From NCBI GenBank assembly GCA_964610275.1, contig CAZSVU010000005.1:484-64483 (forward strand): 64,000 nt of DNA. The letters are read 5' to 3'. This DNA comes from an uncultured Polyangiaceae bacterium (GTDB lineage: Bacteria; Myxococcota_A; Polyangia; Polyangiales; Polyangiaceae). How positions within the stretch are numbered: position 1 is the first letter of the stretch; every line of letters begins with the position of its first letter. Positions 4,072-38,485 of the stretch are shown in pieces. The translations under genes and the position numbers were made by a program. Below the pieces are notes generated by a model, which saw nothing but the letters and a program-made list of their open reading frames with translations, did not search any database and was not told the DNA's origin.

Positions 4072-4938
4072 TCAGTCTGGCTGCTCGTCGAGAATGCGAT
4101 CCACGGTTCGCTGTGCTTGTTCGAGCCGGCGATGACGTGAGGAAGCGATGGCATCGGTGATCCAACGCCACAGCGTTGACCCCGACTCAGGCCTACTGAG
4201 AAACGCGAACGCACCACTGCGCAAGATGTCGAGCGCCTGTTGCGCGGACGGATGGCTGGCCAGCACGATCACCTCGAGCTCTGGTCGATTGTCCTTGAAG
4301 CATCGCACCAACCTGGCTCCCTCCAAACCTCCGACGGGCACGTCGATGAGGGCAACATCGAAGGAGAATCCCTCCGCCAGGCCCAGCGCATCGTCCGCCG
4401 AGTCAGCCGTGGCGACATCCAGTCCGCGGCTCTCGAGCTCAGCTGTGAGTGAAGCGCGGTACTCTCCGTCTTGCCCGGCGATCAGCACGCGCGCCCCCGC
4501 CACGGGCGGGCGCGAATCGCGCTGACTGCCCGCTCGCAGTAGCGCCCCGTGCTTGGCGGCAAGTTGCGCAATACGGGCCAAGCGCTCGACGTCGCACGGC
4601 TTGATCAGATATTCGAACGCCCCGTCGCGGGAGGTCTGGAACGCATCCGGGAAGGTGGGGTGCCCGGTGAGAATGATCACGGGAAGATCGGGGTCCAGCG
4701 TCTTGATCTTGTAGAACAGATCCACGCCGCTGATTCCCGGCATGCGCACATCGAGCACCGCCACGTCGAAGGTGGAGTGCGGCATGAGCTTGAGTGCGGT
4801 ATCGCCATTCTCGGCCAACGTGAGGGCAAAGCCGCGCCGCACCAGAGCTGGTGTGACCGCCTCCAGGAACTCCATTTCGTCATCCACCAGCAGCATCCTG
4901 ATCCGCGGCTCGTCCGTGCTCGTCATGTGCTTCTCCAA
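4072..4938 (-). CDS. Response regulator with two tandem receiver domains and no output domain
   Basis: REC1 is canonical (RMLLVDDEMEF, FDVAVLDVRMPGISG, IILTGH, YLIKP). REC2 (RVLIAGQDGE, FDVALIDVP, VLASH, FLSRP) keeps the Asp but lacks the acidic pair and the Lys. The start may be ATG 4926. Either start overlaps the upstream kinase gene. Confidence 0.85.
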   Translation of the reverse strand: MEKHMTSTDEPRIRMLLVDDEMEFLEAVTPALVRRGFALTLAENGDTALKLMPHSTFDVAVLDVRMPGISGVDLFYKIKTLDPDLPVIILTGHPTFPDAFQTSRDGAFEYLIKPCDVERLARIAQLAAKHGALLRAGSQRDSRPPVAGARVLIAGQDGEYRASLTAELESRGLDVATADSADDALGLAEGFSFDVALIDVPVGGLEGARLVRCFKDNRPELEVIVLASHPSAQQALDILRSGAFAFLSRPESGSTLWRWITDAIASSRHRRLEQAQRTVDRILDEQPD

Positions 4939-13312: not shown

Positions 13313-15346
13313 ATGCCAAAGCTTTTGCTGGTCGATGACGAGGAGCGGTTTCGCACATCGCTGGCGCGGCGCCTTCAAGCCCGTGGCTACGAGACGGTGG
13401 ACCTGCCGGGAGGCGAGGAGGCCATCAAGCAAGTGCGCAGCAACGAGGGTATCGACGTCGTCGTGTTGGATCGGAAGATGCCAGATCTGTCCGGGGAAGA
13501 CGCCCTCAAGGGTATCAAGGAGTTTCGACCCGAGGTGCAGGTCATCATGCTCACGGGCCACCCCGACGTGGAGTCGGCGCGTGAGGCGGGCCAACTCGAC
13601 GCATTTGCCTATCTGCAGAAGCCGTGCGAGCTGGAGGAGCTCACGCGGGTGATCGACGAAGCCCGGGAGGCCACGGTACACGCCAAGCGTCGTTTCGAGG
13701 TTCCGCACGTCGAAGCACGGTCGCTGCGAGCCTGGCTGAAGGGGAGCCACCATTCCCGACCGGGACTTGTCCTGCTCGGCGCGCTACTGTTTGCGCTCAT
13801 CGTCTTGATGCCCACGCCGGCGCGGCTGACGCAGCTTCTCGCGGAGCCCAAGACCGGTCAGATCACGGACGCCACCGCCGGGTACGCCGACTACCGCAAG
13901 CTCGAGCCGGGGCAGACCATCGCCGAGTACTATGGCCACAAGGCCGAGCTCGAGCGGAAGGTCACCGAGGCTGACGGCAAGACGCGTGTGGTTTCCCTGA
14001 GTCCGGACGGGGCAGCGCTCCGAGCCAAGGTCATGCTCGGCACTCTGGTCGTCGCCGCGCTGTTCTGGGCCGTGGGTGCTGTACCGGTGGGGGTGACGGC
14101 CATGCTGGTCGGACTGATCATGTACCTCGCCGGAGTGCTGCGGCCGGACGGGGTTGCCCAGGCGTACGCCAAGGATGCGGTGATCTTCATCTTCGGGGTA
14201 CTGGCGCTGTCCAAGGCCATTTCTGGTACGGGCTTGGATCGACGCATCGGCCTGCTCCTGCTGGGCCCGGCCAAGACGTTACCAAGACTCCTGTTCTTGT
14301 TCCTACCCATGCTGTCGATGGCGTGCGCCTTCGTCTCCGAGCACGCGCTGGTGGCTTTCTTGATGCCGCTGTTCATGATCGTCTACACGTCTTCCGTGCG
14401 CGCGGCCGGCGTCAAGGTGGACAAGGCTCTGGCGGTGATGTTCGCGCTGAGCGTGTGCTTCGCCGCGAACGCTGGGGGCCCCGGCTCGCCCGCCGCCGGA
14501 GGACGCAATGCCGTGATGATTGGTATCCTCACGGAGTACGGCAACGCGCCGACCTTTGGCCAGTGGGTGGTGTACGGGTTGCCATTCGTGCCCGTGATGG
14601 CGCTGGTGATTGCAGCCTATTTCTACCTGGTCTTTCGCCGGAAGCTCAAAGTACGAAAGCTCGACGTGTCGTCGCTGGTGAAGGATGCGTCCGAACGTAT
14701 CGGGCCGATGAACCAGCGCGAGTACATTACGGCCGGCACCTTGCTCCTGGTCATCGCCCTCTGGGTGGGGGCCAGCGACATGCTGGGAATGGGGGGGCCG
14801 GTGCTCATCGGCCTGGTGCTGCTCAACTTGCTGCGTGTGCTCAAGTGGCGGGACGTCGCCGGAATCCAGTGGGAGGTCGTCGCGCTGTACGGTAGCGCCA
14901 CGGCCCTGGGCAAGGGGCTCGCCATGACGGGAGCGGCCCTGTACATGGCCGATGCGTTTGTGGCCGTCCTGCCCGAGTTTTTAACCCACGGAACGGGGCT
15001 GGCCGTCGCGACGAGCTTGTTCACGGGCATCACCACCAACTTCATGAGCGATGGAGCCACCGTGGCCGCCATCGGGCCCATCACCGTGCCCATGGCGACC
15101 ATTTCCGGCACCCATCCGTGGATGACCGGGTTCTCCACGGCGTTTGCCTCGTCGTTTGCCCACATGATGATCATCGGCACCCCCAACAACGCCATCGCCT
15201 ATGCCATGGCCAAGGATCCGATCACCGGGGAGCAGCTGGTGACCCTGGGCGACTTTTTCAAGCACGGTGCGGCAGTACTGCTGTTGTCGTTTGTCGTGCT
15301 GTGGGGCTGGTGTTTCATGGGATACTGGCGCTGGATTGGCTTCTGA
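13313..15346 (+). CDS. Receiver domain fused to a DASS/SLC13-family anion permease
   Basis: Residues about 1-120 form a canonical REC (LLLVDDEERF, VVVLDRKMPDLSG, IMLTGH, YLQKP). The remainder is a polytopic permease carrying the DASS signature ...AFASSFAHMMIIGTPNNAIAYA... Confidence 0.85.
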   Translation: MPKLLLVDDEERFRTSLARRLQARGYETVDLPGGEEAIKQVRSNEGIDVVVLDRKMPDLSGEDALKGIKEFRPEVQVIMLTGHPDVESAREAGQLDAFAYLQKPCELEELTRVIDEAREATVHAKRRFEVPHVEARSLRAWLKGSHHSRPGLVLLGALLFALIVLMPTPARLTQLLAEPKTGQITDATAGYADYRKLEPGQTIAEYYGHKAELERKVTEADGKTRVVSLSPDGAALRAKVMLGTLVVAALFWAVGAVPVGVTAMLVGLIMYLAGVLRPDGVAQAYAKDAVIFIFGVLALSKAISGTGLDRRIGLLLLGPAKTLPRLLFLFLPMLSMACAFVSEHALVAFLMPLFMIVYTSSVRAAGVKVDKALAVMFALSVCFAANAGGPGSPAAGGRNAVMIGILTEYGNAPTFGQWVVYGLPFVPVMALVIAAYFYLVFRRKLKVRKLDVSSLVKDASERIGPMNQREYITAGTLLLVIALWVGASDMLGMGGPVLIGLVLLNLLRVLKWRDVAGIQWEVVALYGSATALGKGLAMTGAALYMADAFVAVLPEFLTHGTGLAVATSLFTGITTNFMSDGATVAAIGPITVPMATISGTHPWMTGFSTAFASSFAHMMIIGTPNNAIAYAMAKDPITGEQLVTLGDFFKHGAAVLLLSFVVLWGWCFMGYWRWIGF

Positions 15347-15376
15347 GAGGGTGCCCGCGCCTGCGGGAGGTGGCAA

Positions 15377-15865
15377 GTGAGCGAGAAGATCAGGCTGCTC
15401 ATCGTGGACGACGAGGTCCGGTTTCTGGACGCCATCGCCAAGCGACTGGAGATGCGCGACTTCGAAGTGACCAAGGCTCCGGACGGCGCGTCAGCACTGG
15501 CTGCCGCCCAGGGCGTCAAGTTCGACGTTGCCCTGCTGGATCTCAAGATGCCCGGCATGGATGGCCGAGAGGTGCTGGAGGCGCTCAAGGCCGAGCACCG
15601 GTTTCTCGAGGTGATCATTCTCACCGGTCATGGCTCGCTGGATTCAGCGGTGGAGTGCACCAAGCTCGGTGCCTTCGGTTACCTGCCCAAGCCCTATGAG
15701 CTCGACCGGTTGATCGAGGTGCTCAAGGACGCGTACGAGCATCGGTTGCGTCGGAAGTTCGAGCATGACCAGGGGCGCCTCGACGAGTTGACCCAGGTGG
15801 CCCTCGGCAACAGTCCGCTGGCCATTCTTCGACGCATGCGCGAGCTCGATGACGAGCGGAAGTAG
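15377..15865 (+). CDS. Single-domain response regulator
   Basis: GTG start. Motifs: LLIVDDEVRFL, FDVALLDLKMPGMDG, IILTGHG, YLPKP. A short helical tail follows. Confidence 0.85.
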   Translation: MSEKIRLLIVDDEVRFLDAIAKRLEMRDFEVTKAPDGASALAAAQGVKFDVALLDLKMPGMDGREVLEALKAEHRFLEVIILTGHGSLDSAVECTKLGAFGYLPKPYELDRLIEVLKDAYEHRLRRKFEHDQGRLDELTQVALGNSPLAILRRMRELDDERK

Positions 15866-15939
15866 GGCCACCTCACCTTCGGCTTGGATCGAGCAGCATT
15901 GGGGTGTCTTCGGGGCCGGAACCGTGAGAATCTTGGCTC

Positions 15940-16836
15940 GTGCGTGTAGCCAGCAAGATCATGCGTGTGCTCATGCTCGCCTTCGTGCCCGTGGGGTTGG
16001 GCTTGGTCCTCTGGCCCCAGGCGGTCCGGCGCCGTGCTGCCCGGGCCAAGATGCCCAGGGCGCGAGCGGTTCTACACTCGGTGGCGCAGAGATACCCTTC
16101 CATCCCCTTCGCCCCGCCCCTGTCCGTCCCGCCACCTGACGTGTCCCTCTGTCCCGCGGACATGGTCCTGATCGACGGGCAGTACTGCCCGGAAATGGCG
16201 TTCCGCTGCCTCGAGTACTTGGGAGAGGGGCGCCTCCGGTGTGCGGAGTTCGCCAAGACGCGACGTTGTTTTGGAGCTCTGCAGAAGAAGCGCTTCTGCA
16301 TCGACAGCTACGAGTACCCCAACCAGGAGGGCAAGAAGCCTCGCCTGGCAATGACCTGGGAGGAGGCCAAGCTGCTCTGTCAGGCTGAGGGCAAGCGATT
16401 GTGCAAGGCCAGCGAGTGGACGCTGGCTTGCGAGGGGGCTGAGCCGCTGCCGTATCCCTACGGTTTTTCACGCGATTCGCGCCTCTGCAACATAGACCGA
16501 CCCTATCGCTTCCCCAACAACTCGGCGTACGCCAATCCTCAGACTCGGGCGCAGGAAGTTGCGCGCCTCGACCAGCGTGAACCGTCCGGTGCCCGCGCCG
16601 GCTGTGTGAGCCCCTACGGCGTGTACGACATGACGGGCAACGTCGATGAATGGGTGGTCAACGAGCAGGGGTCCCGGACCAAACCGCCCTACGTGAGTGG
16701 GCTGAAAGGGGGCTACTGGGGCCCGGTCCGCAATCGGTGCCGCCCCATCACCGACGTGCACAACATGTGGCACTCGGGCTACCAGATTGGCCTGCGGTGC
16801 TGCGCTGATCCCCCTCCCGAGGTTCAGTCCCCGTGA
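15940..16836 (+). CDS. Formylglycine-generating-enzyme (SUMF1/FGE) family protein, membrane-anchored
   Basis: There is an N-terminal TM helix. FGE-fold motifs follow: ...CIDSYEYPN..., ...CVSPYGVYDMTGNVDEWV..., ...GLKGGYWG..., ...GYQIGLRCCA. Confidence 0.75.
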   Translation: MRVASKIMRVLMLAFVPVGLGLVLWPQAVRRRAARAKMPRARAVLHSVAQRYPSIPFAPPLSVPPPDVSLCPADMVLIDGQYCPEMAFRCLEYLGEGRLRCAEFAKTRRCFGALQKKRFCIDSYEYPNQEGKKPRLAMTWEEAKLLCQAEGKRLCKASEWTLACEGAEPLPYPYGFSRDSRLCNIDRPYRFPNNSAYANPQTRAQEVARLDQREPSGARAGCVSPYGVYDMTGNVDEWVVNEQGSRTKPPYVSGLKGGYWGPVRNRCRPITDVHNMWHSGYQIGLRCCADPPPEVQSP

Positions 16837-16978: not shown

Positions 16979-18499
16979 GTGATACTCCCGGAGTGGGTAG
17001 CTCGCGCCATGCCCGAAGAGCTCATCGTCTCCGCCACTGAACTCGTCCAACAGCTCCGCTGGGTGGACGTCGTGGACGTCACGGTGGTGTCCGCCCTGGT
17101 GTACGCCGCGATCAGTTGGCTGGGCCGCGCTCAATCCCGCTTCGTCGTGCGCGGTTTGGCCGGGGTCGTCGCGCTCTACTTCGTGGCGCGGCTGCTGGGA
17201 ATGCACCTGACGTTGTTCATCTTCCAGGCAGCCCTCACCGTCGCCGTGGTGGCACTGGTGGTCATTTTCCAGGAGGACATCCGCCGGGCGTTCGAGCGGA
17301 TCGCCACCCGTGCGCGGCTGGGGACCCCGAAGGCAGCCCCTCCTCGGGAACGGACGGTGCGTCTCGTCTGCCGGGTGGCAGCACAGCTGGCCGCCAATCG
17401 CATCGGCGCCTTGATCATCTTCAAAGGGCGCGAACCTCTCGACCGACACCTGACGGGTGGGATCGAGCTTCAGGGTCAACTCAGCGAGCAACTCTTGTTC
17501 AGCATCTTTGATCCGTCGTCGCCGGGGCACGATGGCGGCCTGGTGGTTCACCTGGGTGAGGTGGACCGATTCGGGGTGCATCTCCCGCTCTCGACCCAAC
17601 CGGACGCCGAGCCACGGGGCACCCGACACGCCGCTGCGCTGGGCCTGGCGGAGCGCTCTGACGCCCTGGTGGTGGTGGTCTCGGAGGAGCGCGGGACCAT
17701 CAGTGTGGCCCAGGCGGGCGCGATTGACGTCGTCAGCCCGCGTGCGCTTCGGGACCGGTTGACGGCGTTCATCAAGGCTCAGGCTTCGGAGCGACGAGTC
17801 GGGCAGGGCGGCTGGCTCAGGCGCACGGCCCTCAAGCTGCTTGCTGTGCTGCTCGCAGCCACGGCCTGGGCGATCGTGGCTCGTTCCCAGGCCGAGGTGG
17901 TCGAGCGGACGGTTACGCTGCCCGTGGTCTACCGGAACGTGCCCCATCATTGGCTAATCGAAGAGCCGGTCCCCGGCGAGGTGCGCGCCACGTTGAGCGG
18001 GCCAGCGGTCGACGTTCGGGGGCTGGATCCGGCACGCCTGCCTCTCACGTTGGACATGAGCGAGGTCGACGAAGGCAAGCAGGTCGTGACCGTCGATCCA
18101 GCGTCGGTCCGAATGCCGGCGGGGATCGTGCTCCAGCGCGTGCACCCGAGGACCGTGGACGTGGTGGCTCGCCGACTCGTCGAAGCTGAGCTTCGGGTCA
18201 CTGCTCACACCAAGGGCCACCTTCGCCGAGGGGTGGTGCTGGAGGCGCTGCGGGTCGAGCCCGAGCGGGTCACGGTCCTGGTTCCGGCCAAAGGGCGCCC
18301 GCTGATCCATTCGTTGGAGACGGCACCTCTCGACCTGAGCGAGCTCCGCACGACCACGACCGTGGAGCGCCGAGTCCTGCTGCCATCGGAAGTGGACAGT
18401 CCCGATGGCTCCCCCCTGACGGTCAAGGTCACAGCGGTGCTGGAGCAACGCGCGGTCCAACGGCCACCAAAACCGGTCGGGTCCGCTGCAGCGCCGTGA
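16979..18499 (+). CDS. cdaA: Diadenylate cyclase CdaA fused to YbbR (CdaR-like) repeats
   Basis: Three N-terminal TM helices are followed by a DAC domain (GALIIFKGREPL, SPGHDGGLVVH, GTRHAAALGLAERSDALVVVVSEERGTISVA). After that come a TM helix and about 230 aa of YbbR-like beta repeats (VTLPVVYRNVPHHWLIEEPVPGEVRATLSGP; RVTAHTKGHL...VEPERVTVLVP). Confidence 0.8.
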   Translation: MILPEWVARAMPEELIVSATELVQQLRWVDVVDVTVVSALVYAAISWLGRAQSRFVVRGLAGVVALYFVARLLGMHLTLFIFQAALTVAVVALVVIFQEDIRRAFERIATRARLGTPKAAPPRERTVRLVCRVAAQLAANRIGALIIFKGREPLDRHLTGGIELQGQLSEQLLFSIFDPSSPGHDGGLVVHLGEVDRFGVHLPLSTQPDAEPRGTRHAAALGLAERSDALVVVVSEERGTISVAQAGAIDVVSPRALRDRLTAFIKAQASERRVGQGGWLRRTALKLLAVLLAATAWAIVARSQAEVVERTVTLPVVYRNVPHHWLIEEPVPGEVRATLSGPAVDVRGLDPARLPLTLDMSEVDEGKQVVTVDPASVRMPAGIVLQRVHPRTVDVVARRLVEAELRVTAHTKGHLRRGVVLEALRVEPERVTVLVPAKGRPLIHSLETAPLDLSELRTTTTVERRVLLPSEVDSPDGSPLTVKVTAVLEQRAVQRPPKPVGSAAAP

Positions 18500-19891: not shown

Positions 19892-20761
19892 CTACGCGGC
19901 CCGGGCCAGGCCCCGCAACGAGTCGTTGACCGGAGGGTCGAAGTGGACGTCGACCTGGGGGAAGGCGATGGTGATGCCGTGCTCCTTGAACGCCCACCAG
20001 ATGGCTTCGCGGAGCTGCGACGAATGCACGCGCGCGAGCCACGGATTGTCGGTCCACACGGCGACCTCGAAGTCTACCGAGGAGCTCCCGAAGTCCACCA
20101 GCAGGACCTGGCACGGCCGGTCCTGGAGTCTCCAGTCGAGCTTCTTCCCGACGTCCTCCAAAGTCTTTCGCACCAACGCCATGTCTGAGCCGTAGGTCAC
20201 CCCGACCACCACCCGCAGGCGGTAGAGCGCATCCTTCATCGTGTAGTTCTTGACCGTCGCCTGCACCAGCGTGGAGTTCGGGACGATCATCTCTTCCTCG
20301 TCCCGCGTGCGGACGAGGGTGGAACGAATGCCGGTCGTCTGCACCCGCACTACCGATCCTTCCACTTCGAGGACATCGCCAGTCTTGATGCTCCGCTCCA
20401 TGAGCAGGATGACGCCCGCAACGAAATTCTGGGCCAGAGTCTGCATGGCGAAGCCGAGACCCACGGCGAATACCGCGCCCGCGGCGAACAGGCCGCCGAG
20501 CTTCACGCCGGCCGTCTGCAGCGCCATGGCAATGCCGGTCGCCAGCACCGTGTAGTGAAGCAGCCGGGTGGCCACGCTGACGCTCCCCTGCGCCCCGACT
20601 CCCCGGCCCTTCAGTGAGCGCTGGATGACCACTCGCAGCGCCATCGAAAGCAGTTGCGCGGCGATCACGATGACCAGCCCGATGAGCAGGGTCGAGGTGG
20701 TGACCTTGACGTCGCCAATCATGAACAGCGACGCGTTGAGGATTGCGTGGACCTTCTGCAT
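19892..20761 (-). CDS. Small-conductance mechanosensitive channel (MscS family)
   Basis: Start ATG 20761 (MQKVHAIL...) is preceded by GGAGGG. Pore-helix and beta-domain signature: ...GLFAAGAVFAVGLGFAMQTLAQNFVAGVILLMERSIKTGDVLEVEGSVVRVQTTGIRSTLVRTRDEEEMIVPNSTL... The longer 367-aa ORF start would overlap corA. Confidence 0.88.
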   Translation of the reverse strand: MQKVHAILNASLFMIGDVKVTTSTLLIGLVIVIAAQLLSMALRVVIQRSLKGRGVGAQGSVSVATRLLHYTVLATGIAMALQTAGVKLGGLFAAGAVFAVGLGFAMQTLAQNFVAGVILLMERSIKTGDVLEVEGSVVRVQTTGIRSTLVRTRDEEEMIVPNSTLVQATVKNYTMKDALYRLRVVVGVTYGSDMALVRKTLEDVGKKLDWRLQDRPCQVLLVDFGSSSVDFEVAVWTDNPWLARVHSSQLREAIWWAFKEHGITIAFPQVDVHFDPPVNDSLRGLARAA

Positions 20762-20895
20762 GACCTGACCCTCCTGCCGAAAACGCGGCACGTTGGTCGC
20801 AAGAGCATGAAGAAGGACGGCAGGTGCCACAAGGGGCGTGCGGCCATTCTTCCGCACCGTTCGGCAGCCAGGCGCGTCGGACGGCCGGATCAGAG

Positions 20896-21957
20896 TCAGC
20901 GGCGCCGCTGGCCCAACCAGCCCTTGCGCCGGTAGTAGAACAGAAGCCCGACGGCGGTGGTCAGCATCACGCCCAGAAGACCCGGGTAGGCCCACCAGGC
21001 ACGTAGCTCTGGCATGTTCTCGAAGTTCATGCCGTACAGGCCGGCCATGAACGAGAGGGGAATGAAGATGCTGGCCATCATCGTCAGCACCTTCATGATC
21101 TCGTTGGCCTGATTTCCAGCCACGGCCAAGTGCGTGTCGAACAGACCCTGCAGGAACTCCCGGTACATCTCGGTGATGTCGGCAACCTGGACACAGTGGT
21201 CGCGGGTGTCGCGCAAGTACACTTTCGTTTCCTCGCTGATGAGGGCCCCCGTGCCGCGCAGCAACGTGTTGAGGCCGTCTCTCAGCGGCCAGACCGCACG
21301 GCGCAGCTGGAGCAAGTTTCGGCGCATCTGGTTGAGGCGCGCCAGCAGCGAATCGTCGCCGCTCTCCAGGACTTCATCCTCCAGGGTTTCCATGCGTGCC
21401 CCGAGCGCTTCCACGATGGGGTAGTAGCCATCCACCACCGTGTCGACGATCGAGTAGGCGAGATAATCGGCACCGGACCGCCGCATCGGCCCGAGACCTT
21501 CTTCCAGGCGCTGGCGTACCGGTCCCAGCAGGTCGTCACGTCCTTCCTGGAACGTGAGCGCCAGCCCTTCGCGGGCCAAGACGCCTACCTGTGAAACCAA
21601 CATGTCCCCACTGTCGTCGTGGCGCAGCGCGCGCACGACGAAGAGCTGGAAGTCCCCGCGAGGCTCGACCGCCGGCCGGTGCGGGACCTGCACCAAGTCT
21701 TCCAGCGTGAGCGGGTGGATGCCATACGTCTCGGCAACCCGACGAAGCAGCGCGGCATCCCCGAGTCCACGGATGTCGAGCCAGGTGATCGAACCAGGAG
21801 AGTGCGGAGCGGGCAGATCCTCGGCGAGGCTGAGCGTCCGAGAGGAGTATTCCTCCGCACCGTACACCACCACCTGAACCTCGGGCTTGGCCGCATGCTC
21901 GCTGATCGCGAGCGTCCCGGGGCGAGCGCCGATTGCGGGCAGAAGCTTGCGGAACAT
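20896..21957 (-). CDS. corA: Magnesium/cobalt transporter CorA
   Basis: Start ATG 21957 (MFRKLLPAIG...). The C-terminus has two TM helices with the YGMNFENMPE (GMN) motif. The 736-aa ORF in the track is this gene plus an upstream antisense shadow of 22126..23046. Confidence 0.9.
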   Translation of the reverse strand: MFRKLLPAIGARPGTLAISEHAAKPEVQVVVYGAEEYSSRTLSLAEDLPAPHSPGSITWLDIRGLGDAALLRRVAETYGIHPLTLEDLVQVPHRPAVEPRGDFQLFVVRALRHDDSGDMLVSQVGVLAREGLALTFQEGRDDLLGPVRQRLEEGLGPMRRSGADYLAYSIVDTVVDGYYPIVEALGARMETLEDEVLESGDDSLLARLNQMRRNLLQLRRAVWPLRDGLNTLLRGTGALISEETKVYLRDTRDHCVQVADITEMYREFLQGLFDTHLAVAGNQANEIMKVLTMMASIFIPLSFMAGLYGMNFENMPELRAWWAYPGLLGVMLTTAVGLLFYYRRKGWLGQRRR

Positions 21958-22125
21958 GTGTGTGAGTCTAGGGGCGCACGCCGCGGGTGACCACGCCCGC
22001 GTCTCGTGGCTCCAACAGCCTGAGATCGCTGCCGATTGCGACGATCCCCTCCCGCATGTGCCGCCGGGGTTGCCGCGCCACGCCGCTGACACCAGACTCG
22101 GCTGCGGTCGCGATCGCGATAGCGA

Positions 22126-23046
22126 GTGGCAATGCAATACGTGGAAGGGTGGTTCGGACGAGCCTGGGGCGGGCGCGCCGTTGCGCTCGTGGTGGGCCTG
22201 CTCATCGTGCTGGTGGCCACCCGCGTGCTGCGACGCTGGGCAACGAGGTATCTGGCCGACTCCAAGAGTCGCTACCACATGCGCAAGTCCGTGGCGCTGC
22301 TCGGCTATCTCGGCGCGCTGGCGGTGCTGATTACTGGCTTCAGCGGCAATCTGGGTGGCCTGGCCGTGGCTTTCGGCGCCATCGGCGCGGGGATTGCCTT
22401 CGCCCTGCAGGAAGTGATTATCTCGGTAGCGGGCTGGTTGGCGGTGTCGGGCGGTGGCTTCTACAAGGCGGGGGACCGCGTCCAGCTGGGCGGAATCAAG
22501 GGAGACGTGGTCGACATTGGTATTCTTCGCACCACCCTGATGGAGGTCGGAGAGTGGGTTCAGGGCGACCTGTACAGCGGCCGACTGGTGCGAGTGGCCA
22601 ACAGCTTCGTCTTCAAGGAGCCGGTGTTCAACTACTCGGCAGACTTTCCATTTCTGTGGGATGAGGTGCGCGTCCCCGTCCGGTTCGGGTCCGACTGGCG
22701 TCTGATGCGGGAGATCCTGCAGCGCGCTGCAGAAGAAATCACCGGTGAGTATGCAGCCCAGGCCCGTCAGACGTGGGACCAGATGGTGCGCAAATACCTG
22801 ATCGAGGACGCTCGCGTCGAGCCCGCGGTGACGCTCGTGGCCAACGACAACTGGATCGAATTCACCGTGCGCTATGTGGTCGATCACAAGGCCCGACGGT
22901 TGACCAAGGACCGGCTGTTCGAGCAGATCCTCGACGCCGTGGACGGCACCGGGGGCAAGGTGCAGTTGGCATCTGCCACGTTCGAGCTCGTGGCATCGCC
23001 GCTGCTGGATGTCCGGGTCGCTGCCGGCCAATCGGCGGAGAAGTAG
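22126..23046 (+). CDS. MscS-family mechanosensitive channel, paralogue 1 of operon
   Basis: Three TM helices plus ...GGLAVAFGAIGAGIAFALQEVIISVAGWLAVSGGGFYKAGDRVQLGGIKGDVVDIGILRTTLMEVGEW...RLVRVANSFV... Confidence 0.85.
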   Translation: MAMQYVEGWFGRAWGGRAVALVVGLLIVLVATRVLRRWATRYLADSKSRYHMRKSVALLGYLGALAVLITGFSGNLGGLAVAFGAIGAGIAFALQEVIISVAGWLAVSGGGFYKAGDRVQLGGIKGDVVDIGILRTTLMEVGEWVQGDLYSGRLVRVANSFVFKEPVFNYSADFPFLWDEVRVPVRFGSDWRLMREILQRAAEEITGEYAAQARQTWDQMVRKYLIEDARVEPAVTLVANDNWIEFTVRYVVDHKARRLTKDRLFEQILDAVDGTGGKVQLASATFELVASPLLDVRVAAGQSAEK

Positions 23047-23053
23047 ACGCGGT

Positions 23054-26000
23054 ATGGAAAACGACCCGCGACACGGTCTCGCAGGGGCGCCCCAACCCGG
23101 GTGCAAGAGGTGCTTCGCCTGCGGGTCGAGTCACCCCTCCCGGCACCTTCTCGCGATCGTACTGGTCGCGTTCGTGATCATGGCGGGTTGGCTGAGCGCT
23201 GCGGATGCGCGGCCCGCTCCGACCGCGTCCGCGTCCGCGTCTGCGGCAGTCGCATCGTCGCCTGATGCGGGTGACGGTGGAATCAACGACGCGGGCGTCG
23301 AAACCGAGCGTGCACGGCAGTGGCGGCAGACCGCGCAGCACATTCGTGAGCTGATCGCGGTCGAGCTCGCCCCCGAAGTCGAGCCCTCGAGCCTTTTCGA
23401 TGTTGCGCTCGACGACGAATCGGCGCTGGCGCTGGAGCGGAAGCGGCTGGAGGCACTGCTGCTCAGCGCTGAGGCTCGGTCGGATGCGGGTCCGAAGGAT
23501 GCCGAAGAGCGGCGGCCTCTGGCGTCCAGGCGAAAATCGGCCAAGCCAGCTGCCCCGGCCGAGGCGGAGCCAAGGCAGGCGGGAGACGCAGGCGCCGAGG
23601 CCGGCGTGGACGCGGCGGCGGCCGAGCCGGAACCCCCGGATCCTCGGGACTGGGCAGCGCGGTTGGAGCTCGACCGGGCGCGTCTCGCGTTCTACTCACT
23701 GCCCCGAGCGCGCCGCACCGAGCTGTTGGCCCGCCACGCACGGCGGCAGCAGGAGCGCGAGCAGGCGCAATCCGCTCGCGCACTGACCGCCGCTGAGAGC
23801 AAGGCCAAGAGCGCTTCCGAGGCGCAGCAGGAGGCTCTGAGAGAGGCCGGGCGGGCGCGCACCGAGGCCAAGCGGTTGCTCATCGAGGAGCGGGCACGTC
23901 TGCTCGGAGTCAAGGTGGAGCTGGCCCAGTTCGAGGCCGATCTGGCGCGACGTCGGCAGGCCCTGGATCAGGCCCGCGAGGGCGCCTTCGGCTGGCGTCG
24001 GCGGGTCAACGACCTGATCGAGCGGCGGCGCAATGGCCAGGCCGGGGACCAGGACGCCGATCGCCTGTACCCCGAGCTGCGCAGCGCACTGCGGGGACTG
24101 CGCGCCGAGTTGCGCGACGCGCTCTCGGCAGTCACGGCACCGTCATCGGTGCCCGTCGTGGGTCAGGATCCGCTGAGCGACTTGCCCGCGGAGGTCGACC
24201 GCACGGAGGTGGATGACGTGCGGCGGGAAGTCACTGCCCTGAGCACGCGAGTCGAGCAGGACGACGCCCAGTTGCGTTGGACCCGCGCCACGCTGCTGCG
24301 CGAGCTGGTGGGATCCCTCGACGAAGGACGCCTCGCGCTCTACCCGTACCTGTCCAGCGACCAGCGCACGAAGCTCACCAGCTTCAGTGCCTATGGGTGG
24401 GATCAGGCGTCGGCCGAGGGCTGGCAGGTGAGCCTGGTGCTCCGCCAACGCGTGCTGGCTGCGCGGCGCTGGGTGGGCGGGCTCTGGAGCGGCGAAGGCG
24501 GTCGCACCGAAGCGGTGTTTCTCGGCATCGACCTGCTCAAGATCCTGGGCCTGTTCGTCGTCCTGTGGTGGCTGCAGCGCCGCCTTGGTCCGCTGATTGC
24601 CAGCTTGCGTGCGCGATTCGAGACTCCCATGCTGGGGGCGGATCGAACCAGTCGAGCAGGTGGAGACCACGTCCTTCTTGTCGCGGATCGGGTGCGAAGA
24701 CCCCTGGGCTGGCTCGTGGCGACCTGGCTCGCCCTGGTGATAATGGGCGCGGAGGTCAGCGCGCTGTTGGAAGTGCAGCTGCTCTGGATCCTGGTGAGCT
24801 GGAATCTCGGTGGCGTCCTGGTCGTCAACCTCATCGATGCATTGGCCGCCGGGCACGACGTGGCCGATGCGCGGCGCCCGACCGCTGAGCTGCGTCTGCG
24901 TTCGTTGAAGCTGGTGGGTCGCGTGGTCGTGATCATCGGCCTCACCCTGGCGCTGACGAGTCACCTGGTGGGGCGCGGGACCATTTACAACTGGGTGCTC
25001 AGCACCTGCTGGTTCCTGGCCGTGCCCGTTGCGCTGTGGATCGTCATCTGGTGGCGGCGGGTCATCTTCGAGCGCCTCGAGCCGCGCGTCGAGGCCAGCA
25101 CGTTGGCCGCATGGGTGGTAGCGCGCAAGGACCGCTGGACGAGCCTGGTAGCGGCGACGGTGGGTGGTGTGTTCCTGCTTGGGCAGGGCACCGCCCGGGC
25201 CGTCGCGCGGTACGTGAGTGGCTTCGTGATCACCCGCCGCCTGCTGGCGTACCTGTTTCGCCGAGAGATCGCCAAGCAGACCCGGCGGCAGGAGGTGGAA
25301 GGCGCCCTCTCCCCATACCCCCGGAAGAAGTGCGCCGAATTCGATCCCGACACTCGCGCGACAGAGCTTCTTCCCACGGCGGCGGATGCAGACCTGCAGA
25401 GCGTGCTCGACGTCATCGACGCACCTGGGGGCGGGGTGTTTGCGCTGGTTGGAGAGCGTGGCAGTGGCAAATCCACCCTGCTCCGCCGGATCGTCGATGA
25501 GCATCCGCACTGCCTGCGTCTCCGCTGCCCCACCGGAGGGCTGACCGCGCTGCTCGCAGATCTCCGGCAGTTGCTCGAACTGGCCACCGACGCGACCGCG
25601 GAGCAGATCCGAACCGCGCTCGACACTCGCGCTGAAGACCATGCGTTGCTCATCGACGACTGCCAGCGACTCGTCGTTCCGACCATCAACGGCTTGCGGG
25701 ACCTCGACGCGCTATTGGAGATGGCGCGCACGTCGAGCGCGACGTGTGCGTGGGTGTTGGCCTTCGATTCCGCTCTCTGGGAGTTCGTGCAGCGTGCCCG
25801 CGGGGTTAGACCGCAGTTCGACGAGGTGCTGGTCATCCGCCCGTGGCCCGAGGAAGTGATCGCCGCTCTGGTGCGCCAGCGCAGCTCACAGGCTGGCCTG
25901 AAGCCCCGGTTCGATCATCTACTGCCGCCGGGCAACACCAATGAGTATCGTCGGGCCGAGCAGTTGGTGCGCACCGAGGCCGGCTACTACCGGCTACTCT

Positions 26001-26368
26001 GGGACTACTCGACCGGCAACCCCGCCGTAGCGCTGCGCTTCTGGTGTCACTCGCTCTACCTCGACGGCGACGGCGAGGTCTTCGTCCAGCTGTTTGCTAC
26101 GCCGGAAATGGCCGACCTCGAAGGGCTTCCGGACGCCACGGTGTTCGTGCTGCGCGCCGTGATGCAACTCGAGCCGGTGCGGATCTCGGACCTCGCCCTG
26201 GCCACTCGCATCTCGGCGCGCGAGGTCGAAGAAGCCGTCAGGTATGCTCGGGTTCGCGGCTACTTGAATGCGGATGGAGACCGGGTGCGGCTCAGCTGGG
26301 ACTGGTACCGAGCCGTATCTCGGTTGCTGCAGCGACGGCACCTGTTGGCGCTGCCGGGGAGTGCATGA
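23054..26368 (+). CDS. Membrane-anchored coiled-coil protein with C-terminal P-loop AAA+ ATPase and winged-helix domain
   Basis: The ORF is open from ATG 23009. ATG 23054 lies 7 nt after the upstream stop. The order is an N-terminal signal-anchor, then about 400 aa of Glu/Arg/Ala-rich predicted coiled coil, then about 6 TM helices. Next come Walker A (LVGERGSGKSTLLRRI) and Walker B (HALLIDDCQRL). The C-terminus is wHTH-like (ISDLALATRISAREVEEAVRYARVRGYL). Confidence 0.8.
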   Translation: MENDPRHGLAGAPQPGCKRCFACGSSHPSRHLLAIVLVAFVIMAGWLSAADARPAPTASASASAAVASSPDAGDGGINDAGVETERARQWRQTAQHIRELIAVELAPEVEPSSLFDVALDDESALALERKRLEALLLSAEARSDAGPKDAEERRPLASRRKSAKPAAPAEAEPRQAGDAGAEAGVDAAAAEPEPPDPRDWAARLELDRARLAFYSLPRARRTELLARHARRQQEREQAQSARALTAAESKAKSASEAQQEALREAGRARTEAKRLLIEERARLLGVKVELAQFEADLARRRQALDQAREGAFGWRRRVNDLIERRRNGQAGDQDADRLYPELRSALRGLRAELRDALSAVTAPSSVPVVGQDPLSDLPAEVDRTEVDDVRREVTALSTRVEQDDAQLRWTRATLLRELVGSLDEGRLALYPYLSSDQRTKLTSFSAYGWDQASAEGWQVSLVLRQRVLAARRWVGGLWSGEGGRTEAVFLGIDLLKILGLFVVLWWLQRRLGPLIASLRARFETPMLGADRTSRAGGDHVLLVADRVRRPLGWLVATWLALVIMGAEVSALLEVQLLWILVSWNLGGVLVVNLIDALAAGHDVADARRPTAELRLRSLKLVGRVVVIIGLTLALTSHLVGRGTIYNWVLSTCWFLAVPVALWIVIWWRRVIFERLEPRVEASTLAAWVVARKDRWTSLVAATVGGVFLLGQGTARAVARYVSGFVITRRLLAYLFRREIAKQTRRQEVEGALSPYPRKKCAEFDPDTRATELLPTAADADLQSVLDVIDAPGGGVFALVGERGSGKSTLLRRIVDEHPHCLRLRCPTGGLTALLADLRQLLELATDATAEQIRTALDTRAEDHALLIDDCQRLVVPTINGLRDLDALLEMARTSSATCAWVLAFDSALWEFVQRARGVRPQFDEVLVIRPWPEEVIAALVRQRSSQAGLKPRFDHLLPPGNTNEYRRAEQLVRTEAGYYRLLWDYSTGNPAVALRFWCHSLYLDGDGEVFVQLFATPEMADLEGLPDATVFVLRAVMQLEPVRISDLALATRISAREVEEAVRYARVRGYLNADGDRVRLSWDWYRAVSRLLQRRHLLALPGSA

Positions 26369-27312
26369 TGACTCGACGACATTGCATGAACGGAGCATGC
26401 GCAACGCTAGCGGCGCTCGGCTCGCTGTTGTGGACACCCATCGCAGCGGCAGCTGAGCCGGCGGCGCCGGAGTTCTCGCAGCTGGTCGGGTTCGTCCGCT
26501 GGAGCGGCGTGCTCGTGTCGATCGGCGTGGTCGTCGGAGCCATGATCCTGCTTCGGTTTCTCCACACGGCGGTGGAGCGCCTCGGCGCGCGTTTCGCGCA
26601 CCGGAGACTGACCTTCCAGAAAGTGGGCTCGTTCACCCGCTTCTTCGTCTACCTGGCCACGGCCATGGTGGTCATCCTGCTGAGCTTCCAGGTGAACCAG
26701 ACGGTGCTGGCACTGGTCGGCGGTACTTTTGCCGTGGCCGTCGGGTTTGCCATGCGCGACTTGGTGGCCGCGATGCTGGCGGGCGTCACCATCATGCTCG
26801 ATCGCCCGTTTCAGGTTGGCGATCGCGTGCAGTACGCGGGCGAGTACGGAGACATCCAGGCCATCGGCCTGAGGAGCGTGCGGATGCAGACCCTGGACGA
26901 CAACACGGTCACCATCCCCAACAACAAGGTCCTCACCGACGTGACGTCTTGCGGCAACTACGGGGCCCTCGACATGCAAGTTCAGGTCGATTTCCACGTC
27001 GGCACGGATCAGGACCTGGAACTGGCAGAGCGCCTGATCACCGAAGCCATCCTCACCAGTCGCTACGTCTACCTGAAGAAGCCCGTCGTCGTGCTGGTGA
27101 AGCAGGTCCTCAAGGATGATTTCGTTGCCGTGCACCTGCGTGGCAAAGCCTATGTGCTCGACACGAAGTACGAGAAGGCTTTCGAGACGGACGTCAGCAA
27201 GACCGTGTTGCGTGCATTTCGAGAGCACCGGATTCTGCCTCCGGCAGTCCTGCATCGATCCGCGGAGGTAGCTGCCAGGCCCTCTGCGCGGCGGGACGCT
27301 GGGGCAAACTGA
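26365..27312 (+). CDS. MscS-family mechanosensitive channel, paralogue 2 of operon
   Basis: ATG 26365 overlaps the upstream TGA (ATGA). A signal-like N-terminus is followed by ...LVGGTFAVAVGFAMRDLVAAMLAGVTIMLDRPFQVGDRVQYAGEYGDIQAIGLRSVRMQTLDDNTVTIPNNKV... Confidence 0.85.
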   Translation: MMTRRHCMNGACATLAALGSLLWTPIAAAAEPAAPEFSQLVGFVRWSGVLVSIGVVVGAMILLRFLHTAVERLGARFAHRRLTFQKVGSFTRFFVYLATAMVVILLSFQVNQTVLALVGGTFAVAVGFAMRDLVAAMLAGVTIMLDRPFQVGDRVQYAGEYGDIQAIGLRSVRMQTLDDNTVTIPNNKVLTDVTSCGNYGALDMQVQVDFHVGTDQDLELAERLITEAILTSRYVYLKKPVVVLVKQVLKDDFVAVHLRGKAYVLDTKYEKAFETDVSKTVLRAFREHRILPPAVLHRSAEVAARPSARRDAGAN

Positions 27313-27338
27313 GCATTCCCTGGCACGTTGGCTTGATC

Positions 27339-28169
27339 ATGGAGCCGGATGTGACTAACTCCCTCAGCGTGGCAGACGAGGAGACGAGTCGCGCGCAGTG
27401 GTGGGGGGACTTCGAGATCCCCGTGGGGTCTGCCGGCCGGTGGCGGGTGGGTCCGCTGATCCTCACCATTGCGCATCTACGCAGCGAGTGGCGCGTGTGT
27501 CGTGACAGCTCCGACGATCCAGCAGACCGGTCGCGAGCGGTCGAAATCCCGGTCGAGTTCTCCCGGGAGAGTAGCTGCGGGTTGCTCACGCGCTATGCGG
27601 CATCACCGGATGCCGATTCGATCTGCGTCACCCCGATCCTCGCGGACCGTTCGGTGGCCGCTCGACCCGAGCCGCCACTCACCGTTCCGGCACGCGGTGA
27701 AGTCGCCATCTACGTCGGCTCTCCGCTCTGGCTGCGTCTCAGCGAGAACGGCACCACGCCGCTCGAAGATTTGCCTGCCATCCGCCCCAACCTGACCTGG
27801 TGGGGCCCGAGCACCATCGAGGGTGAGCTCTGCTACGCGTCACACACGGCCGGGCGGATCCGACGTGAGGAAATGATCAGCTACCCGCATCGCGTGGTCA
27901 CGCAGGTGCGGATCGTCAACCGGGCGGACAGCTCGCTCGTGTTGGAGCGCCTCAATCTACCGGTGCGCCGGCTCGGGTTGTTCGCGACCGGGGAGGGAGT
28001 GCTCTGGACCGAGGCGGTGGTGTTGGAGCGCGGTCAGAAGCAGGACTACGCCGAGCTGAGCCTCACCGAAGGACCGCCAGATGTGGCCGGTGGCGCCGAG
28101 CGCGTGAGCGAGCCGCGTGACCGTGAAGGCACCGACCTCTTCCGGGCATTTGGCTCTCTGTTCAAGTAG
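27339..28169 (+). CDS. Conserved-looking protein of unknown function (no domain recognised)
   Basis: About 277 aa, soluble and beta-rich (…WWGDFEIPVGSAGRWRVGPLILTIAHLRSEWRVCR…, …HRVVTQVRIVNRADSSLVLERLNLPVRRLGLF…). The track starts it at TTG 27333; ATG 27339 is more likely. It lies 20-26 nt after the upstream gene and ends 3 nt before the next. Confidence 0.6.
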   Translation: MEPDVTNSLSVADEETSRAQWWGDFEIPVGSAGRWRVGPLILTIAHLRSEWRVCRDSSDDPADRSRAVEIPVEFSRESSCGLLTRYAASPDADSICVTPILADRSVAARPEPPLTVPARGEVAIYVGSPLWLRLSENGTTPLEDLPAIRPNLTWWGPSTIEGELCYASHTAGRIRREEMISYPHRVVTQVRIVNRADSSLVLERLNLPVRRLGLFATGEGVLWTEAVVLERGQKQDYAELSLTEGPPDVAGGAERVSEPRDREGTDLFRAFGSLFK

Positions 28170-28172
28170 GAG

Positions 28173-28991
28173 ATGAACATGTTGGACCGCGCCTGGGTTC
28201 GGATAGCCGGCTTCTTCACGGATGATCGCATCGAAATGGCGATCCGCGCGGCATTCATTCTCCTCGTCGGCCTGCTGGTGGCCCGACTGCTGTCCCGGCT
28301 GCTCGCGACCCTGGCGAAGAAGAGCTGGAACGCAGAACAGGCCGAGCTCGTGCGGCGCCTGGTCTTCTACGGCGCGTCGGTGGTCGTCGTGGCGTGGTGC
28401 GTGCAGCAGCTGGGCTTCGATTTGACCGTCGTGTTGGGCGCCGCGGGGATCGCTTCCGTGGCCCTGGGGTTTGCCTCCCAGACCTCTCTGTCGAACGTCA
28501 TCAGCGGCTTCCTGCTTTTCGGCGAGCGACCGTTCAAGGTTGGAGACCTCATCGAGGTGTCGGGTCAGACGGGTGAGGTCCTGGCGGTCAACCTCATCTC
28601 GACCACGCTGCGTACCTTCAACAACCGGTTCGTCCGCATTCCGAACGAGGTGATGATCAAGAGCACGGTGGTGAACCTTACCCGGTTCCCCATCCGGCGG
28701 CTGGATCTGTCCATCCCCATCGCGCACGCGGAAGATCTGGATCGAGTCAAGCAGGCACTGCTCGAGGCCGCCGAGCTCAATGCCCTGTGCTTGGAACAAC
28801 CTGCACCGCTCTTCTACATCACCGAATACGCCGACTCGCACGTCTTGGCTCAGTACTCGGTCTGGTGCGAGACTGGAAAGTGGCTCGGATTTCTCGAATC
28901 CATGACCACCGACGTCAAACGGGTGCTCGACCGGCACGAGATTCGGTTCCCGTACCCGCACCGCGTGGTGGTGACTGCTCCCGGCGGGTGA
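28173..28991 (+). CDS. MscS-family mechanosensitive channel, paralogue 3 of operon
   Basis: ...VVLGAAGIASVALGFASQTSLSNVISGFLLFGERPFKVGDLIEVSGQTGEVLAVNLISTTLRTFNNRFVRIPNEVM... An AGGAG overlaps the upstream stop. ATG 28179 has better SD spacing than ATG 28173. Confidence 0.88.
   Translation: MNMLDRAWVRIAGFFTDDRIEMAIRAAFILLVGLLVARLLSRLLATLAKKSWNAEQAELVRRLVFYGASVVVVAWCVQQLGFDLTVVLGAAGIASVALGFASQTSLSNVISGFLLFGERPFKVGDLIEVSGQTGEVLAVNLISTTLRTFNNRFVRIPNEVMIKSTVVNLTRFPIRRLDLSIPIAHAEDLDRVKQALLEAAELNALCLEQPAPLFYITEYADSHVLAQYSVWCETGKWLGFLESMTTDVKRVLDRHEIRFPYPHRVVVTAPGG

Positions 28992-30079: not shown

Positions 30080-38485
<8,406 letters not shown>

Follow-up and report, generated by a model that had tools for sequence, protein, structure and literature searches.

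Channels of the MscS family are the textbook example of 'force-from-lipid' gating by self-sufficient homo-heptamers. In one of the large members of the family, MscK, the structure shows a periplasmic helix bundle acting as a gating ring, an amphipathic helix, a peripheral bundle of transmembrane (TM) helices (TM1–6) and a core formed by TM7–11 (PMC9653487). Here we describe a gene from a 64,000-nucleotide (nt) window of an uncultured Polyangiaceae bacterium (contig CAZSVU010000005.1) that carries a periplasmic helical domain, a membrane bundle and a cytoplasmic AAA+ ATPase on one polypeptide, and that is followed directly by the gene of a small MscS-like channel protein. The two are referred to below as the ATPase gene and its partner. 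The domain anatomy of the ATPase protein, its predicted topology, the pairing and coupling of the two genes, the conservation of the nucleotide-binding motifs and the ion-related and osmotic genomic context are presented. We read the ATPase protein, with a probability of roughly 0.55, as a regulatory subunit that lacks a pore and belongs to a conserved two-gene channel module of the MscS family.

The ATG of the partner overlaps the TGA of the ATPase gene by 4 nt (ATGA). A scan of one genome per species of the Genome Taxonomy Database (GTDB) gave 180 loci encoding relatives of the ATPase protein, and the locus comparisons reported here are based on 80 of them. Nearly all of the 80 are from metagenome-assembled genomes (MAGs) labelled Polyangiaceae, Polyangiales, Myxococcales or 'delta proteobacterium', and a few are labelled Steroidobacteraceae or Gammaproteobacteria. 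A tblastn search of these loci placed an orthologue of the partner next to the ATPase gene, downstream and in the same orientation, in 78 of the 80, with 50–81% identity wherever the gene was complete. The same arrangement was seen in the loci L001–L004, which were found by exact protein look-up. The two exceptions were L041, where the contig ends, and L023, where a CASTOR/POLLUX-like cation channel stands in the partner's place. A start codon with the 4-nt stop overlap was available in about half of 71 loci, and in most of the others a candidate start lay within ~20 nt. Neighbours other than the partner differed from locus to locus. The mean pairwise identity was 0.60 for the partner, against 0.39 for the ATPase protein, and the identities of the two proteins were correlated (r = 0.67). 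Since the MscS-like gene is almost always directly downstream in related genomes, the ATPase protein and its partner probably work together. The first-pass annotation of the window had proposed that an MscS pore is supplied in trans by flanking genes; for the adjoining downstream gene, the 78 paired loci and the start/stop overlap bear this out.

CASTOR/POLLUX-like channels of ~650 amino acids (aa) also occur after the MscS-like partner in four loci (L001, L017, L026 and L027; in L001 at 14387–16336, the L001 and L026 proteins being identical). In L023 (9018–10988) the channel adjoins the ATPase gene directly and the partner is missing.

The partner matched the Pfam model PF00924 (7.9e-16) and the NCBIfam MscS models (down to 2.8e-16), while the Pfam model of the C-terminal domain, PF21082, gave no match. 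Its three TM helices have the standard MscS topology, and the TM3 pore helix and the beta domain are conserved (0.84–0.89). When the pore helix was aligned manually, the gate positions were occupied by Val and Phe, matching the gate residues V921 and F925 of MscK (PMC9653487).

The longest open frame around the ATPase gene spans 23009–26368 on the forward strand. The ATG at 23054, 8 nt from the stop of the upstream gene, opens the 1104-aa frame that was analysed. Pfam assigned AAA_22 (2e-11, above the cut-off) and AAA_16 to the protein, and no other domain; NCBIfam and PADLOC scans of it returned nothing more than noise of P-loop length. A word-indexed search retrieved 24 full-length homologues of 995–1151 aa with 35–47% identity, all of which aligned end to end. 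When a profile of the N-terminal half (N-half, residues 85–745) was used in an exhaustive HMMER search, it yielded 754 representatives of clusters built at 50% identity (E <= 1e-3), of which 434 scored E <= 1e-30 and ~130 lay between 1e-10 and 1e-3. Architecture was judged on the best 150 of the 754. Full-length entries among these keep the N-half and then ~360 residues, which is room for the ATPase module, and in none of the 150 was there room for a fused MscS core. Two short family members were inspected; one is truncated by the end of its contig and the other comes from a frameshift-ridden assembly. The open reading frame (ORF) is therefore a real and intact gene with the architecture first described for it. 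A fusion or mis-assembly artefact, which had been named as a possible source of that architecture, is excluded by the 24 homologues, the 180 GTDB loci and the recurrence of the full-length architecture in hundreds of clusters. At present the family is annotated merely as 'AAA family ATPase' or 'hypothetical protein'.

In three MAGs the whole two-gene module is present twice, on separate contigs (L022/L032, L024/L071 and L057/L080). Within a MAG the two ATPase proteins are ~40% identical and the channels 52–64%. Such low identity suggests that the duplications or acquisitions are old.

The N-half of the protein begins with a signal anchor (residues 32–50) that is followed by an exported domain. 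In the AlphaFold model of residues 85–745, built on 21 aligned sequences, this half is wholly helical, with a mean predicted local distance difference test score (pLDDT) of 83. Its order is a small conserved subdomain (85–145), a disordered low-complexity linker (~148–191), periplasmic helices of 30–56 residues, the membrane helices and a long cytoplasmic helix. The anchor and the long helical region had both been noted from the sequence, and both held. Hydropathy analysis placed the TM helices at 487–507, 552–572, 576–596, 620–640 and 647–668. The Arg/Lys-rich loops follow a positive-inside pattern, in agreement with an N-terminus inside, the periplasmic domain outside and the ATPase inside. 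About six TM helices had been counted originally. An extra hydrophobic stretch at 696–716 is weaker and amphipathic, and its use as a sixth membrane span would make the ATPase periplasmic; hence the number of TM helices after the periplasmic domain is five.

The most conserved segment of the whole protein is the hairpin formed by TM4, its loop and TM5 (620–668), with a conservation of 0.67–0.71 compared with 0.54 for the AAA base. The family consensus of this segment is LVGxGTIYxWVxSTCW...P...WWR. One would not expect so much conservation in a segment that merely anchors the protein in the lipid, and the hairpin is a candidate site of contact with the partner, or a candidate ion site.

The C-terminal half (C-half) of the protein was modelled separately (residues 746–1104, 359 aa, on 22 aligned sequences), giving a pLDDT of 92 and a predicted TM-score (pTM) of 0.90. 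In the model, a P-loop base of the alpha/beta type is followed by a helical lid and a winged helix. When it was compared with the Protein Data Bank (PDB) by Foldseek, the top matches were Cdc6/Orc1/ORC proteins (7jgr_G, 4.8e-10; 1fnn_A, 6.4e-10; 2qby_A, 4.2e-9), followed by RuvB; PAB2304, an archaeal ATPase (2qen), and the resistosomes of plant NLR proteins came lower down. A cytoplasmic AAA+ module with a C-terminal winged helix in place of a channel domain, as first proposed, is thus what the model shows. In agreement with this, the MS_channel Pfam domain was absent from the ATPase protein, the MscS core being on the next gene. At the level of sequence, the winged helix was weakly similar to that of AspA, a DNA-binding protein (E 0.004).

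Motif conservation was counted over 190 unique family members. In the Walker A motif (GERGSGKST, residues 800–808), G803 and G805 were invariant (190/190), and K806 was present in 184, with Arg in the remaining 6. In the Walker B motif (LLIDDCQ, residues 865–871), D868 was found in 187 of the 190. Residue 869 was Asp in 157, Asn in 19, Gly in 6 and Glu in 3, and so was acidic (Asp or Glu) in 160 and non-acidic in 30; the DD pair was present in 156. Both motifs had been noted from the sequence, and these counts show that their nucleotide-binding residues are conserved among relatives. Two arginines placed after the sensor-1 strand, R916 (183/190) and R914 (169/190), were also conserved. The lid carries the motif G-N-P-(G/A)-V-A-L (G988 190/190, N989 188/190, P990 185/190), which we take to be the equivalent of the AAA+ sensor-2 position. 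The residue after GNP, 991, was Gly in 108 members and Ala in 65, with Arg in just 2; the family motif lacks a sensor-2 arginine.

A DD Walker B, a GxP lid motif and a winged helix following it are the signature of the STAND nucleoside triphosphatases (NTPases), the sister group of ORC/Cdc6. STAND modules work as switches that exchange ADP and ATP, and not as motors. With the curated STAND models, matches to nSTAND_NTPase5, NACHT and NB-ARC were all below the cut-off in 25 family members (best 6.2e-5), the weak Pfam nSTAND_NTPase5 matches being found in 8 of the 25. Six family members have Arg in place of the Walker A Lys (GSGRST), and five of these also have Asp-Asn in Walker B. Because of the DD Walker B, the GNP motif that lacks a sensor-2 Arg, the natural Lys-to-Arg variants and the loss of the second Walker B acid in ~17% of members, the motifs point to a STAND/ORC-type nucleotide binding/exchange switch more than to a hydrolysis-driven motor. 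Judged from the aligned sequences, nucleotide binding looks conserved in the family and fast hydrolysis looks dispensable.

The GSGRST subclade (L002, L033 and L045; P0013, P0176 and P0206) includes several members from MAGs labelled Steroidobacteraceae or Gammaproteobacteria. The other parts of the module are conserved in it, and its motifs suggest that hydrolysis has been lost there.

The N-half had originally been likened to the extra N-terminal modules of MscK. When 25 family members were scanned, neither MscS_porin (PF12795) nor MscS_TM (PF12794) gave a match at E <= 1; the E. coli MscK (EcMscK) control scored 4.6e-61 and 2.3e-100, respectively. The NCBIfam models of MscK and MscM did not match the ATPase protein, and profile searches of the PDB with its N-half did not return MscK. 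By hhalign, the N-half was also compared with EcMscK and, as a 70-sequence profile, with a 27-sequence MscK alignment, and the probability was 0.2%. The latter negative is a weak one, because the MscK profile is shallow: the EcMscK homologues retrieved were all enterobacterial with at least 82% identity, and the effective number of sequences (Neff) was ~1.5. Membership of the N-half in the MscK modules at the level of sequence was therefore rejected.

The comparison of folds gave a different picture. When the N-half model was searched by Foldseek against 350,542 PDB chains, two chains stood out, 7uw5_A (E 0.019, probability 0.92, 482 columns) and 7ux1_A (E 0.027, probability 0.96, 492 columns), the third match having an E of 2.6. 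These two are the closed and open forms of E. coli MscK, and they are the sole near-significant PDB fold matches of the N-half. The aligned length would roughly correspond to the 713–723 modelled residues of MscK minus its MscS-like core. On our reading, the predicted fold of the N-half lies nearest to the periplasmic ring and the peripheral helices of MscK. We regard the resemblance as plausible and specific but weak, and a claim of homology would go beyond the evidence. Hence, of the likeness to MscK that had been proposed, the fold-level part stands weakly and the membership by sequence or profile does not.

The locus had also been described as a split or re-wired large channel. A simple split of an MscK-type gene was rejected on helix number and topology. 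The eight helices that precede the core of MscK end in the periplasm, because its MscS-like core starts with the N-terminus outside, whereas the five of the ATPase protein end in the cytoplasm, because the ATPase must reach nucleotide. The partner has a signal peptide of its own that sets its N-terminus outside. Of the two terms, 're-wired' fits better.

If the ATPase protein is a regulatory subunit, as we propose, it would assemble with the small MscS-type protein in the inner membrane. The partner would supply the pore helix and the cytoplasmic vestibule, and the TM4-loop-TM5 hairpin would be the likely contact between the two. The periplasmic and membrane parts of the ATPase protein could serve as an added sensor paddle or gating ring, and the ATP- or ADP-bound state of its switch could bias the assembly or the gating of the channel. 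Solute release would then be set by energy or nucleotide status in addition to membrane tension. A physical complex, the direction of signalling and the effect of nucleotide on gating are what we infer here from the paired genes and their domains. A more specific proposal, which we make only tentatively, is that the pair forms an obligate heteromeric mechanosensitive channel, with an MscS-type pore ringed by pore-less subunits that contribute an MscK-like periplasmic ring and paddles and a cytoplasmic STAND/ORC-like NTPase ring. Several points weigh against a regulatory subunit of this kind. MscS channels are heptameric, while ORC and STAND modules are usually found in other assemblies. L023 is an intact locus that lacks the partner, the sole one to do so. 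The match to MscK is weak and at the level of fold only, the sequence and profile tests being all negative; the TM-scores are 0.17–0.19 with a root-mean-square deviation above 20 Å, and such low TM-scores mean that the overall helix arrangement differs from that of MscK. Moreover, the gating of MscS-type channels is considered to need no accessory proteins (PMC13591265).

The signal may instead run from the outside inwards. The periplasmic and membrane half, perhaps with the MscS-like protein as a tension or ion sensor, would then switch the STAND/ORC-like module, and oligomerisation or DNA binding of the latter would give a cytoplasmic or transcriptional output, as expected of a membrane-tethered osmosensor. 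The STAND-like DD Walker B, GNP motif and winged helix are in line with this, as are the weak match to AspA, the conserved basic C-terminal helix and the dispensability of the hydrolysis residues in some clades. We nevertheless consider it unlikely, as no effector domain or DNA-binding signature scored above threshold, the presumed recognition helix is acidic, no conserved operator came to light (no search aimed at one was made), and translational coupling with strict adjacency to a channel suits a stoichiometric complex better than a regulator and its target. If the ATPase served the assembly, the insertion or the quality control of the MscS-like heptamer and were not a permanent subunit of it, coupled genes with the ATPase ahead of the channel would also be expected; AAA_22 relatives such as ExeA and GspA do help to assemble envelope machines. 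A chaperone would not need so large and conserved a periplasmic domain or so conserved a TM hairpin, however, the catalytic residues are gone in ~17% of members, and canonical MscS assembles unaided, all of which makes such a role improbable.

There is also little likelihood that the two genes are merely co-regulated neighbours in an osmotic-stress island that act independently, the match to MscK being one of chance between long-helix membrane proteins. The Foldseek E of just 0.02, the very low TM-score, the negative sequence tests against MscK and the many unrelated ion-transport genes nearby would all be accounted for in this way. It leaves two things unexplained. The genes stand side by side in 78 of the 80 loci, in Myxococcota as well as in Gammaproteobacteria, with stop/start overlaps, while all their other neighbours vary; and MscK ranks first among 350,542 chains, the next match being 100-fold weaker in E-value. 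Finally, the STAND-like motifs, and the abundance of NTPase-based conflict systems in myxobacteria (PMC7159879), recall an anti-phage system in which a STAND-like NTPase sensor triggers the MscS-like pore as a membrane-permeabilising effector. We hold this to be very improbable. PADLOC gave matches of P-loop length only (mad3 and mad8, E ~1e-3), the neighbours are housekeeping ion and osmotic genes with no defence island among them, and the putative sensor part is periplasmic. In addition, the family is conserved across its clade, usually with one or two copies per genome, and surveys of STAND systems do not mention MscS. A defence system is accordingly not supported by the PADLOC results and the locus contexts. 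The regulatory-subunit reading is the one we retain, and the features on which it is based are listed in Table 1 together with the surrounding channel genes.

Table 1. Coordinates of the ATPase gene, its domains and the neighbouring channel genes in the 64,000-nt window
Feature	Position	Strand	Evidence
Canonical MscS paralogue, 367 aa, opposite strand	19892–20995	−	Pfam, NCBIfam
Second MscS-like paralogue, 306 aa, ends 8 nt before the ATPase gene	22126–23046	+	Pfam MS_channel_2nd 8.6e-8
ATPase gene, 1104 aa: periplasmic helical domain, five-TM bundle and cytoplasmic AAA+/winged-helix module	23054–26368	+	ORF, translation, full-length homologues
Signal anchor or signal peptide, residues 32–50, with a basic N-terminus before it	23147–23203	+	Hydropathy 2.55; N-terminal hydrophobic segments in most homologues
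Periplasmic all-helical domain, residues 51–486	23204–24511	+	AlphaFold N-half model (pLDDT 83), alignment
Five-helix TM bundle, residues 487–668	24512–25057	+	Hydropathy, positive-inside pattern, conservation, Foldseek match to MscK
Cytoplasmic juxtamembrane and amphipathic helices, residues 669–745, linking the bundle to the ATPase	25058–25288	+	N-half model helices 599–606 and 613–660; weak hydrophobic stretch 696–716
AAA+ nucleotide-binding base, residues 791–935; candidate sensor-1 D905, candidate Arg finger R914/R916	25424–25858	+	Pfam AAA_22/AAA_16, model pLDDT 92, Foldseek Cdc6/Orc1/RuvB, motif counts
Walker A GERGSGKST, residues 800–808	25451–25477	+	Sequence; 190-member counts
Walker B LLIDD, residues 865–869	25646–25660	+	190-member counts
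Lid/helical domain, residues 936–1000, motif R-L-L-W-D-Y-x-x-G-N-P	25859–26053	+	Motif counts, model
Winged-helix domain and C-terminal basic helix, residues 1001–1104	26054–26365	+	C-half model strands 326–329 and 332–335 flanked by helices; full-length Foldseek Cdc6/Orc1 alignments (5e-10 to 7e-9); weak AspA winged-helix match
Partner gene, MscS-like channel, 315 aa: signal peptide, three TM, beta domain, C-terminal domain	26365–27312	+	Pfam MS_channel_2nd 8e-16, NCBIfam MscS models, sequence, pairing in loci
Orphan ORF for a soluble 278-aa protein, flanked by the partner and the following MscS gene	27333–28169	+	No family match
Canonical MscS, 272 aa, last in a tightly spaced same-strand run	28173–28991	+	All three MscS Pfam domains, NCBIfam MscS 1e-36

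The flanking MscS genes on which the first-pass annotation had relied are real, all four being recognised by Pfam. Five genes form a same-strand run with gaps of -4 to 21 nt, in the order MscS-like paralogue, ATPase gene, partner, orphan ORF and canonical MscS. The second MscS-like paralogue is a frequent but non-obligate companion of the module that may stand on either side of it. It was found in 16 loci (14 distinct genome places) with >50% identity over most of the protein, and in 3 more the match was weaker or partial. Canonical MscS genes are frequent near the module in other loci too. Neither Pfam nor NCBIfam recognised the orphan ORF, and none of the other loci contained a homologue of it; it may be specific to this lineage or no gene at all, and it is doubtful whether it belongs to the module. 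Scanning the operon region for promoters and terminators gave no useful information.

On the opposite strand, a 736-aa ORF (20896–23106, −) had appeared to encode a CorA protein with a long N-terminal extension. CorA was found in its last ~300 aa only (Pfam, residues 439–727), and the extension of ~430 aa is the antisense of the MscS-like gene at 22126–23046. When the extension was used as a tblastn query, it matched the opposite strand of MscS genes at other loci. The extended CorA was therefore rejected.

Besides CorA and the four MscS paralogues, the context of the module in the window includes a P-type cation ATPase, Cache histidine kinases, a receiver-fused DASS transporter and a CdaA-YbbR protein. 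In the other loci the neighbours include trehalose synthesis genes, K+ channels, an N-type ATPase and Usp proteins. These neighbourhoods point to ion and osmotic homeostasis.

A 506-aa ORF (16979–18499, +) that lies ~4.5 kb upstream of the channel cluster combines the N-terminal TM domain of CdaA with a diadenylate cyclase (DAC) domain and YbbR, and it looks like a CdaA-CdaR-type fusion. Cyclic di-AMP is a known regulator of K+ and osmolyte transport. A 677-aa protein (13313–15346, +) has a receiver domain fused N-terminally to a DASS/CitMHS-type transporter, and two Cache-domain histidine kinases are encoded close to it (4880–6760, −; 11034–12734, +). It may also be noted that the window contains a giant ORF of 2801 aa (30080–38485, +), with 21 DUF4215 repeats in its first 1000 aa alone (E 7e-111). 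Another gene (7955–9913, −) encodes a 652-aa protein with a strong Pfam match to MATCAP (2e-91), a family named after a eukaryotic microtubule-associated tyrosine carboxypeptidase.

No MscS-family channel partnered by an ATPase came up in our literature searches. A review of bacterial MscS-like channels from September 2026 mentions neither ATP or ATPases nor heteromers nor partner proteins (PMC13591265), and MscS is absent from surveys of STAND and NTPase conflict systems. What is new here is a candidate in-trans subunit, unprecedented for an MscS-family module, that combines MscK-like sensor parts with a STAND/ORC-like switch. The module is widespread, and its putative sensor modules and nucleotide switch are on one gene and the pore on the next. 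Should the pair be an obligate heteromer, it would be the first bacterial MscS-family channel to need an accessory subunit, with gating or assembly set by ATP/ADP. Should the two proteins form a complex, it would be a natural test of unattached peripheral helices and periplasmic rings acting on an MscS pore; osmotic valves could then integrate energy or nucleotide status, and AAA+/STAND modules would acquire a membrane-embedded context. Such a complex would also provide a name and a testable role for a large and poorly annotated family.

Among known systems, E. coli MscK (KefA) and MscM (YjeP) share with the ATPase protein a signal sequence, a helical periplasmic domain of ~450–500 aa and a multi-helix peripheral membrane bundle. 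As in MscK, this bundle goes with an MscS-type pore, and the Val/Phe gate of the partner in the manual alignment is a further likeness. The differences are that pore and vestibule are on a separate polypeptide here, that neither of the Pfam domains of EcMscK (MscS_porin, 50–289; MscS_TM, 509–826) is matched, that there are five outer TM helices ending inside and not eight ending outside, and that MscK has no ATPase.

For the ATPase itself, the archaeal Cdc6/Orc1 and eukaryotic ORC/Cdc6 proteins (1FNN, 2QBY, 7JGR) have the AAA+ base, the lid and the C-terminal winged helix in the same order (Foldseek E 5e-10 to 1e-8). The identity is 11–15%, however, and the ATPase protein differs from them in having DD and not DE in Walker B and a GNP lid without the sensor-2 Arg. 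Unlike Cdc6/Orc1, it is membrane-tethered, with nothing tying it to replication. With the STAND NTPases (MalT, NB-ARC/NLR and the ATPase_2 protein PAB2304, 2QEN) it shares an hhhhDD Walker B and a GxP motif followed by the winged helix. Unlike them, it ends at the winged helix, without a C-terminal repeat sensor or a recognisable effector domain, its N-terminal part is a polytopic membrane module, and its Pfam STAND matches remain below the cut-off.

In function only, the proposed arrangement recalls the ATP-sensitive K+ (KATP) channel, in which the SUR ABC-ATPase subunit co-assembles with Kir6 and ATP/ADP sets the gating. There too, a pore-less subunit with a P-loop site goes with a small pore protein, although the families are unrelated and eukaryotic and no shared ancestry is implied. 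Closer to MscS are the bCNG channels, which are a precedent for MscS relatives with roles beyond those of emergency valves (PMC13591265). As in the module proposed here, an MscS-family pore is linked in them to a cytoplasmic nucleotide-binding regulatory domain. In bCNG, this domain is fused to the pore subunit and binds cyclic nucleotide monophosphates, whereas here a P-loop NTPase is carried by a separate and far larger membrane subunit.

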